Assembly (NCBI GenBank): GCA_963718855.1
Contig: CAVRAA010000006.1
Span: 214,988 to 278,987, forward strand
Reading direction: 5' to 3'
Length of the DNA: 64,000 nt
Origin: an uncultured Nitrospiraceae bacterium
GTDB lineage: Bacteria; Nitrospirota; Thermodesulfovibrionia; Thermodesulfovibrionales; SM23-35
Each line of letters begins with the position of its first letter. Position 1 is the first letter of the stretch. Shown one piece after another: positions 6,017-62,661 of this stretch. A program made the translations under genes and the position numbers. Below the pieces are notes generated by a model. That model had not been told where the DNA came from. It saw nothing but the letters and a program-made list of their open reading frames with translations, and did not search any database.

Positions 6017-6164
6017 TGGGTGTTATTCACTATAACCGAAAGAACGGAGAGAAGTTAAGCTGAAGAGTCGCTGTTTCCTCCTCTGATCATCCCGTTGGGA
6101 AGTCTGCTCTCGTTAGATTTGTTTCGTATCGCATCATTTTAAAGAATGATGTAAACTATACCGT

Positions 6165-6536
6165 ATGAAAAAGATTATTTTCCTCATGACAATTATTCTG
6201 CTGTTGCCGGTGCTTTCGTATGCCCAGCCGTCGATTGTTTTTGATTCTGAAGAGCACGATTTCGGGACCGTGGCGCCGGTGGAGACCATTGAACATGTTT
6301 TTGAGTTCACGAATGCGGGAGATCAGGATCTCCTTATCCAACAACTCGGCTCATCCTGAGGATGTGCAGCTGCGATGGCCAGTTCGAGCCATCTGAAACC
6401 CGGGGAGAAGGGAAGGATTACTGCAAAGATCGATATGAGGGGAAGGAGAGGCGCACTCCTCAAAACTGTGCAGGTATCTTCGAACGATCCCAAAAGACCT
6501 TCTGTTGTCCTTTCACTGAGAGCGACGATACAATAA
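6165..6536 (+). CDS. Secreted DUF1573-like protein with in-frame TGA (6357-6359) at the first Cys of the SCGC motif; candidate selenoprotein
   Basis: Signal peptide MKKIIFLMTIILLLPVLSYA, then HDFGTV...FEFTNAGDQDLLI..LGSS-[TGA]-GCAAA...KPGEKGRITAKID...VSSNDPKRPSVVLSL. The same frame stays open from 6360 to TAA at 6534-6536. Confidence 0.6.
6374..6393 (+). promoter_or_regulatory. SECIS-like hairpin (GATGGC / GCCATC, 8-nt loop) starting 14 nt after TGA 6357
   Basis: Perfect 6-bp stem read directly. The loop starts 21 nt after the TGA, within the range I recall for bacterial SECIS elements. Confidence 0.45.
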
Positions 6537-6729
6537 TAGTATTGTCTGTTGAGGCTTTCGCAAAAGTCATGTTCTGTATCCGCAGGCTTTGACTGCAAGG
6601 CACCGAACAAGAAAACACGCAAACTAAAGTTTGCGGCTACATAATGATTTCAAAACTTTTTGCAAAAACCTCTTCGGTCGATCAATCATTGGCATCTGCA
6701 AGCAGATATCAGAAGCAGAGGAGAACCTT

Positions 6730-6978
6730 ATGCTGAAGGAAAGTTGTCCGGGGAGCAGGGAAATCAGAACTCCTTATCCCGAAGAGATACAATGTTTCTG
6801 GTGTGATGCACTCTCAGAGATTTGGTCCGACGAGGCGGAGACCGTTTGCAGGGGATGCGGAAGGCAGATAGCGCGGGAGATGAAGCCGACGTGTATCGAA
6901 TGGTGCCCTGCAGCGAAAGAGTGCATCGGCGCCGGGAAATACGAGAGGCTCATGAAACAGAAGAAGAAAAAGATATGA
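6730..6978 (+). CDS. Small Cys-rich zinc-ribbon-like hypothetical protein (82 aa)
   Basis: ATG at 6730 preceded by GAGGAG. Cys pairs (CFWC, CRGC, CIEWC...C). The upstream part of the track ORF was rejected. Confidence 0.5.
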   Translation: MLKESCPGSREIRTPYPEEIQCFWCDALSEIWSDEAETVCRGCGRQIAREMKPTCIEWCPAAKECIGAGKYERLMKQKKKKI

Positions 6979-7892: not shown

Positions 7893-7969
7893 TGGCGGGG
7901 TGGACGGGACTTGAACCCGCGACCTCTGGCTTGACAGGCCAGCGTTCTAACCAGCTGAACTACCACCCC
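7893..7969 (-). tRNA. tRNA-Asp (GTC), CCA encoded
   Basis: Hand-folded cloverleaf: acceptor GGGGTGG/CCACCCC, D arm GTTC..GAAC, anticodon stem CTGGC/GCCAG with loop CTGTCAA, T arm GCGGG-TTCAAGT-CCCGT. Confidence 0.9.
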
Positions 7970-8034
7970 GTGGAAAATGTATTGAACAACTCTGACCTTT
8001 TAATTAATTCCGGTTTTGCCTGTGCAAAAGCGGA

Positions 8035-8110
8035 TGGTAGGCGGAACAGGGCTTGAACCTGTGACCCCAGCCTTGTAAGGGCTGTGCTCTCCCAACTGAG
8101 CTATCCGCCC
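8035..8110 (-). tRNA. tRNA-Val (TAC), CCA encoded
   Basis: Hand-folded: acceptor GGGCGGA/TCCGCCT, anticodon stem CAGCC/GGCTG with loop CTTACAA, T arm ACAGG-TTCAAGC-CCTGT. Confidence 0.9.
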
Positions 8111-8180
8111 AGGAAGTAATTTTATACTACATAAAAACGTCTTTTGTCAATTGCATACAGCGGAGACTTCTGCGATGGAC

Positions 8181-8495
8181 CTATTTTTTGAGAGAAACTT
8201 CGCCGGTCTCAGGGTTGTAATTGTATTTTGAAAAATCGACTTTACCGCCAATGAAATCACCCACATCCTCAAGGACGGCAGGGTATTGATCGTTGGCTGC
8301 CCGATAGGCCTGAACAGCTTTTTTCACCGCATCGAGGTTTGCTGCTTCTCCTGCCAGTTTTGCGCTTGCATGAGCACCAAGCAACGCATCGCTGTATTCC
8401 GATACCGGATTTTTTGGTTTCTCATCGCACGCAATTATCAGAAAGCTGCACAGAACCAATGCACAGCCCAAACGTCCGAAATTCCTCATGTTCAT
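8181..8495 (-). CDS. Hypothetical lipoprotein
   Basis: 104 aa with signal peptide and lipobox LIIAC. Confidence 0.55.
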   Translation of the reverse strand: MNMRNFGRLGCALVLCSFLIIACDEKPKNPVSEYSDALLGAHASAKLAGEAANLDAVKKAVQAYRAANDQYPAVLEDVGDFIGGKVDFSKYNYNPETGEVSLKK

Positions 8496-25230: not shown

Positions 25231-25320
25231 TCAGGTGGGCACGCCAAGCTTCGGGAGCACGATGTACTGGAGCACTCCCCATACGACGACAATAATCAGT
25301 ATGATCAGCCAATCGCTCAT
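25231..25320 (-). CDS. Candidate 29-aa hydrophobic peptide (MSDWLIILIIVVVWGVLQYIVLPKLGVPT), ATGA-coupled to the upstream DsbC-like gene
   Basis: Its ATG (25320-25318) overlaps the TGA stop (25319-25317) of the DsbC-like gene. Single predicted TM helix. Below the track cutoff. Confidence 0.35.
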   Translation of the reverse strand: MSDWLIILIIVVVWGVLQYIVLPKLGVPT

Positions 25321-26084
25321 TTCCTTAGTATCAACTCCTTCAGGGCATTGGCATCCTTAAACCCTGAGACGACCCTTCCGTCCGGCATAACCAGCGTCGG
25401 GGCGCTGGTAATACCTAATTTCCCGGCAAGCTTGATAGTATCATCGACTGCCGTGGTTTTGCATTTGGGAGCAGGCAAAGATTTATTCTCAAAGGCACTT
25501 TCAAGAAGGGCAAGTGATTTTTCGCAGACGATCGCCTTTGCCTTATTGTACGCACCGGCATGCATTTTCAGGGGGAACATCTTGATATGGAACGAGATAT
25601 CTTTTCTTTCTTTGACGACCTTCTTCATCTCCTGATGAAGTTTGGCGCAGAAGGGTCATTCCGGGTCATCGAAGACGATCACCCTGTATTTAGCGTTCTT
25701 CTCTCCGAGAACAATGGCGTCGCCGAGAGGGATTTGAGAGACATTGACTTTGTTGATTTCCGACAGACTCTCCTGCGTCAGATTCCTCTTCCCGTTAATC
25801 TGGTAGAGTGAACCCGTAAAGAGATGTTTTTTGGGGAAATCGATATACACGACCCCTTTCTTTCCGTTCGATTCGACCGATACTTCAAAAAGATACTTTG
25901 CAGCACTGACGCTGATATTTTTTATTGTAATGGCCTGGTCGAAGTCTTTCAGCAGCTTCGCGGCCTCGTCTTTTTTCAGGGTATGGCATTTCGAACAGTC
26001 CTGTCCCTTTGTCGAAAAACCCGATGAATCTGCAGCAAATGACATCATCGATACAGCGAGAAATATGACAAAGGCTCTCCTCAT
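25317..26084 (-). CDS. DsbC/DsbG-like thiol:disulfide interchange protein with in-frame TGA in place of the first Cys of the CxxC motif; candidate selenoprotein with N-terminal CxxCH
   Basis: ORFs 25656..26084 and 25317..25628 are in the same frame, joined by ...VFDDPE-[TGA]-PFCAKLHQE-MKKV... DsbC has FTDxxCPYCxxLH at this position. The C-terminal GITSAPTLVMPDGRVVSG matches the thioredoxin-fold cis-Pro region. Signal peptide and CSKCH near the N-terminus. RBS GGAGG before ATG 26084. Confidence 0.7.
25623..25640 (-). promoter_or_regulatory. SECIS-like hairpin (CUUCAUC-AGGA-GAUGAAG) starting 15 nt after the TGA at 25658-25656
   Basis: Perfect 7-bp stem with a 4-nt loop containing GG, read directly on the minus strand. 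Confidence 0.45.
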
Positions 26085-42382: not shown

Positions 42383-43850
<1,468 letters not shown>

Positions 43851-43958: not shown

Positions 43959-45496
43959 ATGCATGAAGAAAAAATATTAGTCCTCGATTTCGGCTCTCAG
44001 TATACCCAGTTGATTGCGCGACGGGTAAGGGAGGGCAAAGTCTACTCCGAGATTTTTCCGTTCAACGCGTCAATCGAAAAGATCAGGGCCTTTCACCCGA
44101 AAGGGATTATCCTCTCAGGCGGTCCGTCGAGTGTTTATGACAAAATCGCTCCGATACCGGATCTGAAGATATTCGACCTCGGCGTTCCGATCCTCGGAAT
44201 CTGTTACGGGATGCAGTTGATGGCCCACTGCCTTGGAGGCAAAGTCGCAAAGGCCCAGAAGAGGGAATATGGAAGGGCGGAACTCATTACGACAGAAGAC
44301 CGAATATTTTTAAAGGGATTCCCAAAAAGACTACTGTTTGGATGAGCCACGGCGACCGAATCGAACGGTACCCTTTGGGGTTCCAGCCTGTAGCGCATAC
44401 GGATAACTCACCTGTTGCCGCAATGGCCAATACATCGAGACAATTCTACGCGTTGCAATTTCATCCCGAAGTGGCTCATACCCCGCTGGGCTCCCGGATT
44501 ATCAGAAACTTTGTGTTCGGGATATGTGAATGCAGGCCGCTGTGGACGATGAAGTCCTTTATTGACGGGGTTACGCAGGAGATCAGGGAGCGGGTGGGGG
44601 ACAAAAGGGTGGTATGCGGCATAAGCGGCGGGGTGGATTCGACTGTCGCCGCTGTTCTCGTGCACCGGGCCGTAGGGAAACAGCTCACGTGTATTTTTGT
44701 CGACAACGGGGTGCTCAGGACAGGAGAGGCGGATAAGGTCGAAAAAACGCTGAGGAAGCATTTTCACATGAACATCGATTGCGTGGATGCATCCGAACGG
44801 TTCTTGAAAAAATTAAAAGGTGTTATTGATCCGGAAAAAAAGAGAAAGATCATAGGCAATGAATTCATACATGTGTTTGAGGAAGAGGCGAAAAAGATCA
44901 GGGGAGTTGAATTTCTCGCCCAGGGCACGCTCTACCCGGATGTCATCGAAAGCGTCTCTTTTAAGGGCCCGTCCGCAACAATAAAGAGCCATCACAATGT
45001 CGGCGGACTTCTGAAGAGGATGCGTCTGAAGCTTGTCGAACCGCTGAGAGAGCTGTTCAAGGACGAGGTAAGAGTGCTCGGAAAGGACCTTAACATCCCG
45101 GAGGAGATAATCAACCGTCAGCCCTTTCCCGGGCCGGGCCTTGCGATAAGGATCATCGGCGAAGTGACCGGAGAACGCTGCGATATTCTGAGGAAGGCGG
45201 ACACGATAGTTCTGGACGAGATCAGAAAGGCCGGCCTCTATACGAAACTCTGGCAGTCCTTTGCTGTTCTCCTGCCTGTGAAGAGCGTTGGCGTCATGGG
45301 AGACGAGAGGACGTACGAAAATGTCATTGCAGTGAGAGCGGTCAACAGCCTGGACGGGATGACTGCCGACTGGGCAAAGGTCCCCTATGAGGTGTTGGGA
45401 ATCATTTCCAGCAGGATTATCAATGAAGTAAGAGGCGTCAACAGGGTGGTCTACGACATAAGCTCCAAACCGCCGAGCACGATAGAGTGGGAATGA
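43959..45496 (+). CDS. guaA: GMP synthase (glutamine-hydrolysing), single frame interruption at the A5 run 44324-44328
   Basis: GATase (ILGICYGMQ) ends ...LKGFPK. The next frame gives [11 protein letters not shown]..., the ATP-PPase SGGVDSTV, and the C-terminal PPSTIEWE. Confidence 0.9.
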
Positions 45497-57178: not shown

Positions 57179-59867
57179 ATGGAAGAGAAAAAAAGACCAA
57201 GTCCTGATCTGCTTATCGATCATGATGCGGAGTGAAGCCGAGCGGAGTCGGGAAGGGAAGCTCAAGATATTTTTCGGCGCTGCACCCGGAGTGGGGAAGA
57301 CTTATGCGATGCTTGCGTCTGCACAACAAAAACTGGCAGAGGGGGTCGATGTCGTTGCAGGCATTGTAGAGACGCACGAACGGAAGGAAACGGAAGCGCT
57401 CCTCGTGGGACTTGAAGTGATTCCACGCCGTCCCGTTGAATACCGCGGAACAACATTAAATGAATTCGATATCGACGCAGCTCTCAGTCGTAAACCCGCG
57501 CTCATTCTGGTTGACGAGCTGGCTCACACAAATACTCCGGGCTCACGACATAAAAACCGGTGGCAGGACATATACGAACTGCTTGGCGCCGGGATCTCCG
57601 TGTATACCACGATGAATGTGCAGCACCTTGAAAGTCTGAATGATGTAGTCACCCAGATCACGGGCATCCAGGTGCGTGAAACTGTTCCCGATTTTCTCCT
57701 CGACCGTGCAGACGAGATAGAACTCATAGACCTTCCGCCCGAGGAACTTCTGCAGACGGCTAAAGGAAGGGAAGGTATATGTAGCTGAATTGGCCGAGCG
57801 GCGAGAACAAATTTCTTTCGCAAGGGAAACTTGCTTGCCCTGAGAGAGCTGGCATTGCGCCGTACTGCTGAAAGGGTGGATGAACAGATGCAGGATTACC
57901 GGCGAGTCAAAGGGGTAAGGGAAGTTTGGCCCGCAGCTGAGCGGATAATGGTCTGCATTGGGGCAAACCCCCGTTCAATCCGCCTGATCCGGGCAGCGAA
58001 GCGAATGGCAGCCGGACTTCGGGCGGACTGGATTTCCGTATACGTTGAAGCTCCGACAGCGGTTAGGCCGTCTGAAAGTGATCTCAGGCACCTGTCCGAC
58101 CATATGCGTTTGGCCGAAAGCCTTGGAGCAGAAACCGTGACGCTCTCCGGTCACAATGCCAGTGAGGAAATTCTCAATTATGCCCGCACCCGTAATGTAA
58201 CTAAAATCATTGTAGGTAAGCCGACTCATCCGAGATGGAAAGATAAGCTGTTCGGGTCATTGCTTGACGACGTTGTGCGCGGCAGCGGGGACATAGACGT
58301 CTATGTCATTTCAGGTGATTCAGGTCATGCTGAACCAAAGCTCGCAGTCAAGCCGGTCCCTCGGAAGACTGACATGAAAGGCTGGCTTCTTTGTGCGGGA
58401 ATTGTTATAGCTTGTACGGGTATTTCTGCCCTGATGTTCCCCTATTTAAATCTCGTGGATCTCGCCATGGTCTATCTCCTGGGCATTATGATCGTCGCAA
58501 GCCATACCGGTAAGGGACCAGCATTATTGGCAGCACTGCTCAGCGTAGCATCGTTTGATTTCTTTTTTGTTCCTCCTTACCATACCTTTGCGGTCAGCGA
58601 TGTAAAATATCTCGTCACTTTTGTCGTCATGTTCATCGTTGCCTTTGTCATCGGCAATTTGACCTTCCGCATACGTGAGCAGGCGAATGCAGCCCGGCTC
58701 CGTGAAAGAAGAACGGCAGCTCTTTATAACCTCAGCAAAGAACTTGTGCACGAGCAGGAGGTCAAAATCTTAAGTTCAATTGCTGAAAAACATATCAACG
58801 ATGTTTTCCCGAGCAAGGTCGTCATCCTGATGCCTGATGAGAAGGGAAACCTGACTGTTCCCATTACTGCCGAGGAAACATTCGCTTTGGATCAGAGCGA
58901 GTTGGGGGTTGCCCAATGGACGTTTGATCACCGCCAGCAGGCCGGTCTGGGCACTGATACGGTTCCGGGAGCAAAGGCGCTTTATCTGCCGTTGGTCACT
59001 TCATCGCGGACAGTAGGAGTGCTGGGTATTTTACCCGGCTCCTCTCCGGGACTGTTTGATCCGGAGCAGATGCATATGCTCGAAAGTTTCGCAAACCAGA
59101 CTGCTATTGCCATCGAAAGAGCGCTCCTTGCAGAAGAGGCGCAAAATGCCCTTCTAAAAGCAGAAACTGAAACCTTGCGCAATACCCTCCTCAGTTCTGT
59201 TTCACATGATCTGCGTACTCCGTTGGCAGCAATCACAGGGGCTTCATCAACATTGCTTCAGCCTGATATATCTCTGGACAAGCACAGCAAGAAAGAACTT
59301 ATAAAGACCATTTATGAAGAAGCAGAGCGTTTGAATCAAATTATTCGCAATGTGCTTGATATGACGCGTCTTGAGTCAGGTGCGATAGTGGTAAAAAAAG
59401 AGTGGCAGTCTCTTGAAGAGATTGTTGGAGTTGTAATGAACCGATTTTCTGAAAAACTGAAGGAACACCCGATTTCCATCAATCTTTCCGTTGATTTGCC
59501 TCTTGTTCCTTTTGATGCCCTCCTCATTGAACAGGTTTTAATGAATCTTCTTGATAATGCTATAAAATATACGCCAAAGGAGACTCCCCTGGAGCTTTCT
59601 GCGATGTTGAAAGGAGATAGTTTGCTTGTGGAATTTGCAGATCGGGGTCCTGGGATTCCTCATGGAGAGGAGAAGCAGATATTTGAGAAATTTGTTCATG
59701 GTTCCACGGCAAAAGGGGGGATCGGTTTAGGCCTGACTATCTGTCATGCAATTATCACTGCCCACGGGGGAGATATTTGGGCTGAAAACAGGTTGGGTGG
59801 AGGGGCCGTTTTTCGATTTACTCTGCCCATTACCGGGAAGCCAAAATTGCTGGAAATGGAAGAATAA
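57179..59867 (+). pseudogene. kdpD: Sensor kinase KdpD with about 3 frame interruptions in the first 650 nt (about 57225, 57758, 57815)
   Basis: MEEKKRPSPDLLIDH | GKLKIFFGAAPGVGKTYAM...NVQHLESLNDVV...PEELLQ | RLKEGKVYVAELAER | FFRKGNLLALRELALRRTAERVD..., then intact USP, 4-TM, GAF, HisKA (VSHDLRTPLA) and HATPase domains. Confidence 0.9.
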
Positions 59868-60632: not shown

Positions 60633-60790
60633 AATAGAAATTGCAGCCGAAATCCATTGAAAGAATGGATGCGGGGGACCCAAATAGAAGGGGCGTATTT
60701 CGCGGGATATCCGGGAATAGGGCACTTCCAGGCCCGAGCCCGACAGCTAACCTCGCAGGCATGTGGAAGGGCACTGGACAGGGATGTGGA
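60633..60790 (+). promoter_or_regulatory. c-di-AMP riboswitch (ydaO/kimA class) leader of kup
   Basis: Contains GCGGGGGACCCA and CCCGAGCCCGACAGCUAACCUCGCAGGC. These correspond to the two most conserved blocks I recall from B. subtilis ydaO (GCGGGGGACCCA ... CCCGAAUCCGUCAGCUAACCUCGUAAGC). Confidence 0.8.
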
Positions 60791-60814
60791 CCGCTGCCAG
60801 CCGGCGGTTTTTTT
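60791..60814 (+). terminator. Intrinsic terminator (CCGCTG-CCAGC-CGGCGG + T7), expression platform of the riboswitch
   Basis: 6-bp stem with one G-U pair, followed by TTTTTTT. An RBS-sequestering hairpin CCTCCTT/AAGGAGG follows at 60820-60841. Confidence 0.7.
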
Positions 60815-60846
60815 ATGCTCCTCCTTTGCCCCCGAAGGAGGCAGCG

Positions 60847-62661
60847 ATGCTGAAGAGAGAATCTCCTGCTAAGGGAATCATCAAATCCCTCGGTCTTGTT
60901 TTTGGCGATATCGGAACGAGCCCTATCTACACGCTTACCGTTATTTTTCTGCTTATGAAACCGACGGAGGACAATGTGATCGGAGTTCTTTCCCTCATTG
61001 TCTGGACATTGGTTATCCTTGTGACCATTGAATATGCATGGCTCGCCATGAGCCTTGGGAAGAGGGGCGAAGGCGGCACTATTGTCTTGAAAGAAATCCT
61101 TGCCCCTCTGCTGAAATCAGGGAGGCAGGTCTCGTTTGTCACTTTTCTCTCTTTTGTCGGGATATCACTCCTGATCGGTGACGGTGTTATCACTCCATCA
61201 ATAAGTATTCTCAGTGCGGTTGAAGGCTCATTGCTGATCCCCGGGCTTGAACATACGCGACGGGAAATCCTCATTTTTGCGGCGGCTGTTATCGCAATTA
61301 TATTATTCGTCTTTCAGAGAAAGGGGACTGAAAAGGTGGCCGTCGCATTCGGCCCTCTGATGATTATTTGGTTCTCTTCTCTGACGATATCGGGAATTAT
61401 ATCCATCAGCCATGTCCCATCGGTATTGACGGCGCTGAACCCTTACAATGCCGTTCGGTTTGTTGCTGATCAGGGCCTTTTCGGGTTCTTCGTGCTTTCT
61501 GAAGTAATCCTCTGCGCGACAGGAGGAGAAGCATTATACGCGGATATGGGTCATCTTGGCAGAAAACCCATCATAAGGGCATGGTCGTTCGTTTTTGTAG
61601 CGCTCCTCCTGAATTATCTCGGACAGGGCGCTTTTCTCGTTCAGCATCCGGAGGCAAAAAATGTGCTTTTCGAGATGATATTCCACCAGGCGCAGTTTCT
61701 CTATATCCCTTTTCTTGTCCTCAGCATCATTGCTACGGTCATTGCGTCACAGGCGATGATCAGCGGAATGTTTTCCATTGTTTATCAGGGGATTACTACG
61801 CATATCATCCCCCTCTTTAAAATCGACTATACCTCAACGGAAATGAGGTCCCAGATATACATAGGTTTTGTGAACTGGTTTCTCCTCGCATCGGTGCTGT
61901 TCGTCCTGGTTGAGTTCAGAGAATCCCAGCGCCTTGCCTATGCATACGGCCTCGCGGTGACCGGAACGATGTCTCTGACCGGCATCTTTATGACGTGGAT
62001 TTTTTATAAAAGGAATAACAGGGGCAGGGCGTTTGTCTCGATCATAGTGACTATTGTGGACCTGGCATTTCTTTTTTCGAATATGGTTAAGATACCGCAC
62101 GGCGGTTACTGGTCTCTTATCATAGCAGCGTTCCCTCTCGCGGTAATCCTTATCTATACCAAAGGGCAAAGAAGGCTTTACATGGCGTTGAAGCCGATCG
62201 CCATCAATGAATTCCTCGAACGATACATCGTCGCGTATAAAAGAACAAACAGGATAGAGGGAACCGCCCTTTATTTTTTGAAAGATGCAAAAGAAATCCC
62301 TCCGTACATGCTGCGCAGCATGCTGGTGAACGGAATTATTTATGACGAAAACATTATTGTGACTATCGTCAAGCGTGTTGACCCGTACGGGGCCATCGGT
62401 TTTTTTAAGGAAGATATTGGCCCCGGTCTCAGGGTGTTTGAAATCCAGGCAGGGTATATGGAATTTCCTGATATTGAGGAAATATTGAAAGAAGCGGGCA
62501 TCGATGAAAAAACAATCTTTTACGGCATAGAAGATATCGTTACGGGAAATATATTCTGGCGGATATTTTCAAGTATTAAACGATTAACGCCCAACTTTGT
62601 CCAGTTCCATAAGCTTCCGTCTCATAAGCTGCACGGTGTAATGACAAGGGTGGAATTATGA
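60847..62661 (+). CDS. kup: KUP/HAK/KT family potassium transporter
   Basis: MLKRESPAKGIIKSLGLVFGDIGTSPIYT is the canonical Kup N-terminus; GGEALYADMGH. ATG 60847 follows AAGGAGG. The upstream 28 codons of the track ORF overlap the riboswitch and were rejected. Confidence 0.9.
   Translation: MLKRESPAKGIIKSLGLVFGDIGTSPIYTLTVIFLLMKPTEDNVIGVLSLIVWTLVILVTIEYAWLAMSLGKRGEGGTIVLKEILAPLLKSGRQVSFVTFLSFVGISLLIGDGVITPSISILSAVEGSLLIPGLEHTRREILIFAAAVIAIILFVFQRKGTEKVAVAFGPLMIIWFSSLTISGIISISHVPSVLTALNPYNAVRFVADQGLFGFFVLSEVILCATGGEALYADMGHLGRKPIIRAWSFVFVALLLNYLGQGAFLVQHPEAKNVLFEMIFHQAQFLYIPFLVLSIIATVIASQAMISGMFSIVYQGITTHIIPLFKIDYTSTEMRSQIYIGFVNWFLLASVLFVLVEFRESQRLAYAYGLAVTGTMSLTGIFMTWIFYKRNNRGRAFVSIIVTIVDLAFLFSNMVKIPHGGYWSLIIAAFPLAVILIYTKGQRRLYMALKPIAINEFLERYIVAYKRTNRIEGTALYFLKDAKEIPPYMLRSMLVNGIIYDENIIVTIVKRVDPYGAIGFFKEDIGPGLRVFEIQAGYMEFPDIEEILKEAGIDEKTIFYGIEDIVTGNIFWRIFSSIKRLTPNFVQFHKLPSHKLHGVMTRVEL

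Follow-up and report, generated by a model that had tools for sequence, protein, structure and literature searches.

The closest described relatives of the gene analysed here form the OS_HP2 selenoprotein family, which was predicted in 2007 from Olavius symbiont metagenomes (Zhang & Gladyshev, PMC1976440), was entered as 'OS_HP2 pfam07610 UxC' in the 2008 Global Ocean Sampling (GOS) listing (PMC2398784), and is carried in reviews as the selenoprotein family 'DUF1573 PF07610 UGC' (PMC9312934 and PMC13188914). Another described system to which we compare it is MccSep of Geobacter sulfurreducens, a periplasmic pentahaem cytochrome c selenoprotein that acts as a polysulfide reductase (PMC13510729). 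Here we describe a locus in a 64-kb stretch of DNA from an uncultured Nitrospiraceae bacterium (64,000 nucleotides of contig CAVRAA010000006.1, referred to below in its full length as the window), in which positions 6165-6536 very probably constitute one gene for a small exported selenoprotein, with the UGA at 6357 read as selenocysteine (Sec, or U in motifs). DUF1573/UGC is already a catalogued, computationally predicted selenoprotein family, so the gene does not found a new one; it is a member of the known OS_HP2 family from an under-annotated Nitrospirota (Thermodesulfovibrionales) clade.

The reading frame opens with an ATG at 6165, runs into an in-frame TGA at 6357-6359, and continues beyond it for 58 codons to a TAA at 6534-6536, just as a first-pass annotation of this DNA had described. 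Read through, the coding sequence (6165-6536, plus strand) is complete and specifies 123 residues plus the stop, with the UGA (6357-6359, plus strand) as codon 65 and as the proposed Sec codon, occupying the first position of a U-G-C motif (6357-6365). The local motif is S-S-[TGA]-G-C-A, within a junction peptide that reads ...QQLGSS[TGA]GCAAAMASSSHLKPGEKG... across the two halves. Using the 123-residue product with U replaced by C as a query against Pfam profiles, we obtained a match to PF07610 (DUF1573) of 83.4 bits (E=1.2e-23; gathering threshold 26.1 bits) that covers positions 1-96 of the 98-position profile and crosses the TGA. The same match runs to residue 120 of 123, marking the TAA at 6534-6536 (plus strand) as the true terminator, and a second profile match of the product was to a HYDIN/VesB-like immunoglobulin (Ig) model. 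The read-through product is thus a single DUF1573/PapD-like Ig domain, and the part downstream of the TGA, which had been proposed to be the conserved C-terminal half of that fold, is confirmed as such both by this match and by the protein-level selection described below.

The N-terminus of the translation shows a basic start, a hydrophobic core and an A-x-A-like 'SYA', a layout that relatives keep, with a conserved A[YW][AS]-QP junction. From this arrangement we predict a Sec-type (secretory pathway) signal peptide, MKKIIFLMTIILLLPVLSYA (6165-6224, plus strand), with cleavage before QPS, so that the mature protein would have about 103 residues.

Among NCBIfam models, the best match was NF041425, 'OS_HP2 family (seleno)protein', at 69.5 bits over positions 3-97 of 98. 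All five Nitrospirota relatives that we tested against this model likewise scored under its curated cutoff of 100 bits (65-88 bits), and the Desulfoluna butyratoxydans homolog (L045) passed it at 121.6 bits; scores below the cutoff are probably why the Nitrospirota clade appears in public protein sets only as fragments or as calls with tryptophan at the Sec position. Of the features by which the literature defines OS_HP2/DUF1573-UGC, the locus shows a UGC motif aligned with cysteine, conserved flanks and a downstream SECIS-like stem-loop (SECIS, selenocysteine insertion sequence); the definition also takes in a host genome with the Sec-decoding trait (selA, selB, selC and selD), for which the support comes from published work on the lineage. 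Cys-form DUF1573 homologs have the consensus S-C-G-C-T at the motif position, so that the family motif given in the first-pass annotation, A-S-C-G-C-T, was essentially right; across DUF1573 at large C-G-C has an invariant Gly, and each Cys is conserved to at least 90%.

Protein searches with the product returned matches of three kinds: full-length proteins, fragments of about 67-70 residues ending before the TGA position, and fragments starting after it (public fragment calls P0003, P0011, P0025 and P0023, P0027, P0031). The two closest full-length matches have Trp at the TGA position. We read the DNA beneath these two, together with a third metagenome contig, and found an in-frame TGA at the same codon in all three, with conserved sequence on both sides, in homologs that are about 51-63% identical to the window protein. 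Since the underlying DNA reads TGA, the Trp in the database entries is an artefact of gene calling under genetic code 4. A scan of species-representative genomes, based on alignment of C-terminal halves, yielded 43 loci, with TGA at the aligned codon in 23 of 23 Nitrospirota/Thermodesulfovibrionales/Dissulfurispiraceae loci and in Desulfoluna butyratoxydans, and TGC or TGT in the other 19 (Holophagaceae/Geothrix, Vampirovibrionales, Bacteroidota, an Acidobacteria metagenome-assembled genome (MAG) and a Thermodesulfobacteriota MAG). Every one of the 27 TGA-bearing homologous loci (three metagenome contigs, 23 Nitrospirota and Desulfoluna) thus has its TGA at this codon, opposite Cys codons in 19 loci, which bears out the earlier proposal that Sec replaces the first Cys of C-G-C. 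All 26 of the extracted genes have TGA as their internal codon (28 of 28 with L002 and L003), while their terminal stops vary (TAA 13, TGA 8, TAG 3).

This distribution bears directly on whether the TGA stands for a TGC/TGT that was sequenced or assembled wrongly, or reflects a recent nonsense mutation, so that the gene would be an ordinary Cys gene or a pseudogene. Such a change requires only one base, the same window has likely defects in guaA (split near 44340) and in kdpD (garbled, with a TGA at 57786), and one relative, L035, is frameshifted past the hairpin described below. Against this, the same TGA is found in 27 other independently assembled sequences from varied samples and species, with no TGY among Nitrospirota, and both the purifying selection downstream and the RNA-level constraint on the hairpin are not expected of a pseudogene. 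The comparative data have effectively refuted this explanation already, and we give it next to no weight; the miscall that the first-pass annotation had named as a danger to its own claim is excluded by the independent assemblies. As observations on individual orthologues, L035 (7773-8153) shifts frame shortly past the hairpin and is either a pseudogene or an assembly error, and the L011 orthologue enters a masked N stretch at about 8170-8280.

The alignment of Cys-form and TGA-form homologs, which had been suggested as a test, showed that sequence past the TGA is conserved, and codon-position entropies indicate in what manner. Downstream of the hairpin these were 0.82/0.73/1.58 for the three codon positions, compared with 1.05/0.85/1.49 in the upstream half, a pattern indicating that the half after the TGA is translated and under protein-level selection. 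The retention of the TGA in every one of about 25 species, with the downstream half selected in this way, implies decoding of the codon. Alternatively, the UGA could be a real stop, with translation restarting at an ATG at 6375, in which case the locus would encode an exported N-terminal piece of 64 residues and a second product of 53: public gene callers yield exactly such fragments, and a GAGG arises from the invariant UGA-GG some 12 nt ahead of that ATG. We nonetheless find two separate products very hard to credit, as one Pfam domain and one predicted beta-sandwich cross the junction and neither half could fold alone, the C-terminal half would be without a signal peptide, and the putative restart codon varies, with GUG, UUG or CUG in many relatives. 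In addition, the internal 'stop' is always TGA whereas the true terminators vary, and in distant homologs one unbroken gene has Cys at this place.

Recoding at 6357 is specific to the site. Of 31 long genes in the window, 15 end in TGA, among them uvrA, dxs and kup, which have full-length Pfam matches, so that it is a normal stop here and the standard genetic code applies; genome-wide reassignment of TGA, a candidate that we also considered, is ruled out on the same count. Taken together, these results eliminate four readings: miscall, pseudogene, split gene and reassigned code.

Located inside the coding sequence, shortly after the UGA, is a SECIS-type hairpin at 6374-6393 (plus strand), with arms GAUGGC (6374-6379) and GCCAUC (6388-6393) and the loop CAGUUCGA (6380-6387); in the DNA, the arms GATGGC/GCCATC pair perfectly about the 8-nt loop CAGTTCGA, and the stem begins 14 nt past the TGA. 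We aligned the 63 nt from the UGA onward in 25 sequences, for which RNAalifold returned a single helix that pairs columns 18-24 with 31-37 and is this same hairpin, so that the stem picked out in the first-pass annotation proves to be the conserved, covarying element of the clade. Paired cells amounted to 92.6%, vs. 14-46% when the 3' partners were slid by 1-3 columns, and compensatory double changes occurred in 4 of the 7 pairs, such as GCU...AGC to GUC...GAC in L012 and A-U to G-C at pair 19-36. Not one of 500 shuffles reached the observed pairing or covariation score. The loop bases G26 and U27 (window 6382-6383) are invariant.

The hairpin also leaves its mark on codon choice and on the encoded peptide. 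The peptide that it encodes, M-A-S-S-S-H, is kept only in the Sec clade, with Cys homologs unrelated there. In all 23 genes, AGU is used for the first Ser of this peptide, the codon that is the source of the loop GU, compared with 21 of 249 Ser codons (8.4%) elsewhere in these genes, where AGU is the rarest, and third-position entropy within the hairpin goes down to 0.69. Hairpins of 9-11 bp also stand at the same distance past the TGC (codon 7998-8000 plus 60 nt) in four Cys-form homologs from Geothrix/Holophagaceae and an Acidobacteria MAG (L026, L031, L032 and L041), and these could be chance products of GC-rich DNA or relics of a former SECIS.

Bacterial SECIS elements have been characterised by a 3-9 nt loop on a 4-16 bp upper stem, a distance of 16-37 nt from UGA to loop, a minimum free energy (MFE) of at most -7.5 kcal/mol, and a G among the first two apical-loop positions that is usually followed by G or U (PMC13188914). 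All four properties were found in 16 of 25 relatives, with MFEs ranging from -3.2 to -11.1 kcal/mol, and the clade consensus, a 7-bp stem with the 6-nt loop AGUUCR, fits the G-position rule. The window hairpin has three of the four, with a 6-bp stem and 8-nt loop, 20 nt spacing (21 nt in most relatives) and a marginal MFE of -7.8 kcal/mol.

Based on these results, we propose that the UGA at 6357 would be recoded as Sec during translation. In this mechanism, the hairpin at 6374-6393 would act in the mRNA as a bacterial SECIS inside the coding sequence, presenting its conserved G-U loop about 20 nt past the UGA and recruiting SelB carrying Sec-tRNA(Sec), so that the ribosome could insert Sec and go on to the TAA at 6534. 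The mature product is predicted to be a PapD-like Ig beta-sandwich with U-G-C in a tight turn between two strands. The wider lineage is reported to have the components that this would need: complete selA/B/C/D sets are reported for Thermodesulfovibrio genomes (Mukai et al., PMC5389517), SelB and selC have been described in a groundwater Nitrospirae lineage (PMC8124441), and the Sec-dependent MccSep family is reported mainly from Desulfobacterota and Thermodesulfovibrionia (PMC13510729).

The same literature raises the question of whether a recoded UGA always means Sec, since it might instead be read as Cys through a selC* tRNA(Cys) and SelB at low selenium, as Trp or Gly through reassignment, or by near-cognate read-through. 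In favour of such decoding, tRNA-Sec-like selC* tRNA(Cys) genes have been reported from Thermodesulfovibrio and from Nitrospirae-like contigs, a deltaproteobacterial selC* with a UCA anticodon inserted Cys at a Sec UGA in an Escherichia coli test (PMC5389517), and two database entries show W at the codon. Countering it, TGA ends about half of the window genes with no sign of code 4 or code 25, homologs align Cys, never Trp or Gly, with the codon, an opal-anticodon selC* with a dedicated CysRS* has been described only for a subgroup of Desulfobacterales (PMC5389517), and we saw no selC* in the window or in the flanks of related loci. Decoding by selC* would moreover use the same SECIS/SelB route and so would complement rather than replace Sec insertion, with SelB then perhaps decoding the UGA as Sec or as Cys according to selenium supply. 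We regard a non-Sec outcome as improbable, if somewhat less so than the alternatives discussed above, and take Sec as the residue in what follows.

To place the motif in a structure, we used the AlphaFold2 model of a 63%-identical homolog, P0001, which shows an eight-strand beta-sandwich with a predicted local distance difference test (pLDDT) score of 90.7, and in which the U-G-C position falls in the turn between strands 55-62 and 66-70; P0001 has Trp at the Sec position, making the modelled local geometry of the motif approximate. Foldseek matches included HYDIN, the P. gingivalis protein 2qsv, and the Ig domains of VesB/VesC. A further indication comes from gene fusions, as in a sub-clade the Sec-bearing DUF1573 domain is joined to a C-terminal cytochrome c, in six Nitrospirota relatives (L012, L013, L015, L018, L020 and L025; at about 7790-8490 in L012, L013 and L015). 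The extension has two CxxCH motifs in the four sequences that we read, and the L013 protein matches the cytochrome c family PF13442 with E=8.5e-12; P0030 represents a fusion of this type whose gene call is truncated.

CxC motifs can be redox-active. By analogy, U-G-C may form a redox-active selenol/thiol pair, capable of a reversible selenenylsulfide, in a protein whose signal peptide and cytochrome c fusions in relatives suggest a periplasmic redox role. We propose periplasmic thiol, sulfur or selenium substrates as possible targets, or the passing of electrons to a haem partner. A more specific version of this idea, which we consider rather unlikely, is that the Nitrospirota U-G-C Ig proteins are a periplasmic selenium redox module of sulfur metabolism with an MccSep-like architecture. 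Such a module could act on polysulfide, sulfane sulfur or selenite while trading electrons with a c-type haem; in the window it would stand alone, and in the six relatives it would be joined to a dihaem cytochrome c.

A number of results weigh against the assignment of a Sec-containing product, or against parts of it. TGA junctions flanked on both sides by 40 or more open codons number about 74 in the window, placing the frame by itself at chance level; its significance comes from the single Pfam domain spanning the junction and from the features conserved in other genomes. The assembly shows probable errors elsewhere (the guaA frameshift and the garbled kdpD), because of which the single window sequence would not be trustworthy without comparative data. 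At the family level, the window protein misses the curated NF041425 cutoff, and published support for OS_HP2/DUF1573 is computational, with no experimental selenium incorporation reported for any member. As for decoding, neither the 64-kb window nor the flanking DNA of 24 related loci contains selA, selB or selD (the ten large window open reading frames (ORFs) that we scanned are housekeeping genes and none of these three), and no tRNA-Sec was found in the window or in the 24 related loci. Foldseek returned only generic PapD-like/ASH Ig domains, none with a known catalytic role, and the functional proposal is built on analogy.

The remaining points of this kind concern the hairpin. The window loop breaks the rule for a G in its first two positions, its G being third in CAGUUCGA, because a C24.A31 mismatch widens the loop, a variant that the window shares with L006, L008, L011 and L014. 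The bacterial-SECIS geometry claimed in the first-pass annotation thus stands for stem and loop size, spacing and MFE, and fails for the position of the G. Rfam SECIS models gave no match at the gathering score across the whole window or at E<=10 within 6100-6700, so that a covariance scan, advanced earlier as a check on the hairpin, came back empty; coding-region bacterial SECIS elements are diverse, making this miss weak evidence. Folding of the 64 nt that follow the TGA was no more favourable than in shuffled copies (z=+0.34), and mean local MFE is alike in Sec and Cys homologs (-11.3 vs. -11.0 kcal/mol). Since these thermodynamic tests are uninformative, the case for a SECIS is one of conservation and covariation and not of stability.

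Around the gene, a scan for promoters and terminators found nothing beyond chance. In the closest relatives the gene adjoins a divergent uvrA, and UvrA is about 75-80% identical to that of the window in most relatives and 69% in L025, with no relative identical to the window. Just downstream of the selenoprotein gene, at 6730-6978 (plus strand), lies an 82-residue Cys-rich ORF with several CxxC-like pairs, for which neither Pfam nor NCBIfam gave a match. Its counterparts in six related loci show 71-85% identity, about the same conservation as uvrA, and lie 150-1700 nt downstream in L004, L006, L008 and L025 and farther away in L011 and L013. Further downstream is a tRNA-Asp(GTC)/tRNA-Val(TAC) pair (window 7893-8110, minus strand; L008 9978-10144; L011 13338-13491), which together with the upstream dapB, apbE and uvrA indicates conserved synteny with Thermodesulfovibrionales genomes.

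Elsewhere in the window we observed another in-frame TGA (25656-25658), in a gene at 25320-26084 (minus strand) for a DsbC-like protein (DsbC_N plus thioredoxin) with U-P-F-C at its CxxC site and a 7-bp hairpin 16 nt past the UGA. The first-pass annotation had named this as a second Sec candidate of nearly matching geometry, and here the outcome is mixed. The TGA is not conserved, with Cys in 103 of 103 homologs with a locatable motif, including one that is 90% identical. The hairpin looks newly evolved: the DNA of the nearest homolog has TGT at the codon, and each of three nearby substitutions in the window creates a hairpin pair. This pattern suggests a recent, genuine Cys-to-Sec change rather than an error.

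Other irregularities in the window appear to be of a different nature. At 57222-59867 (plus strand), kdpD is broken by an in-frame TGA (57786-57788) inside the KdpD sensor domain; its N-terminal ORF spans 57222-57788, and the same frame runs on into Usp, DUF4118, GAF and HisKA domains. Next to the usual KdpD sequence, the residues near this TGA look locally garbled, so that paired indel errors or a pseudogene seem more likely here than recoding. At 43959-45496 (plus strand), guaA is split over two frames near 44340 by a frameshift or an assembly indel, with the first ORF corresponding to GATase profile positions 1-108 and the second to GATase 127-188 plus the synthase domains. An IMP dehydrogenase ORF at 42612-43850 (plus strand) begins at Pfam position 67 of 345, and its N-terminus may be missing or interrupted upstream. 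Finally, a c-di-AMP (cyclic di-adenosine monophosphate) riboswitch (RF00379, 81.8 bits) at 60635-60776 (plus strand) stands directly upstream of a Kup-type potassium transporter at 60763-62661.

The window gene leaves our understanding of Sec decoding unchanged, and its value is in the first place one of annotation, as public data split the gene into two fragments or put Trp in place of Sec. Because the NCBI OS_HP2 model misses the Nitrospirota members that we tested, the selenoprotein goes unrecognised at every Thermodesulfovibrionales-type locus examined. The 25-sequence alignment additionally shows with unusual clarity how a SECIS within a coding region limits the choice of codons and the peptide (M-A-S-S-S-H) alike, and the cytochrome c fusions provide a first testable hint to the function of the large DUF1573 family.

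Set beside described systems, the locus is closest to OS_HP2, with which it shares PF07610, a U-G-C (UxC) motif with Sec at the first Cys, a downstream stem-loop, a signal peptide and many Cys-form homologs; in the curated Desulfoluna butyratoxydans member (121.6 bits), too, the TGA falls on the aligned codon. The hairpins of the two lineages occupy the same place but differ in sequence, being GAUGGCY/AGUUCR/RGCCAUC in Nitrospirota and CGCUUCG/UUUA/CGAAGCG in Desulfoluna, and the Nitrospirota proteins are single-domain or fused to cytochrome c, whereas the Desulfoluna protein has another C-terminal extension. MccSep is likewise a periplasmic selenoprotein, with Sec on an Ig-like beta-sandwich that works with a c-type haem, a combination recalling the six cytochrome c fusions. 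It differs in its Sec context (G-U-P vs. U-G-C in the window) and in its reversed domain order, and the window protein is without a haem domain. A sequence search of the PDB gave no similarity to MccSep, whose chains may not be in the database copy searched, and the likeness is one of architecture by analogy, not of homology. The UxxC selenoproteins of thioredoxin fold (DsbG/DsbC-like and DsbA-like; PMC2398784) are also exported thiol-disulfide proteins and have Sec in place of the first redox Cys, but are set apart by that fold, as opposed to an Ig-like one, and by UxxC rather than UxC spacing; the candidate at 25320-26084 of the window is of this type. A local resemblance was also seen to the YphP/YqiW bacilliredoxin (PDB 7rzb), which has S-T-C-G-C-A-A-G-L-A where the window protein has S-S-U-G-C-A-A-A-M-A. 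With a non-significant E=0.56 over about 38 residues and an unrelated thioredoxin-like fold, we rejected kinship in this case in favour of chance or a convergent motif.

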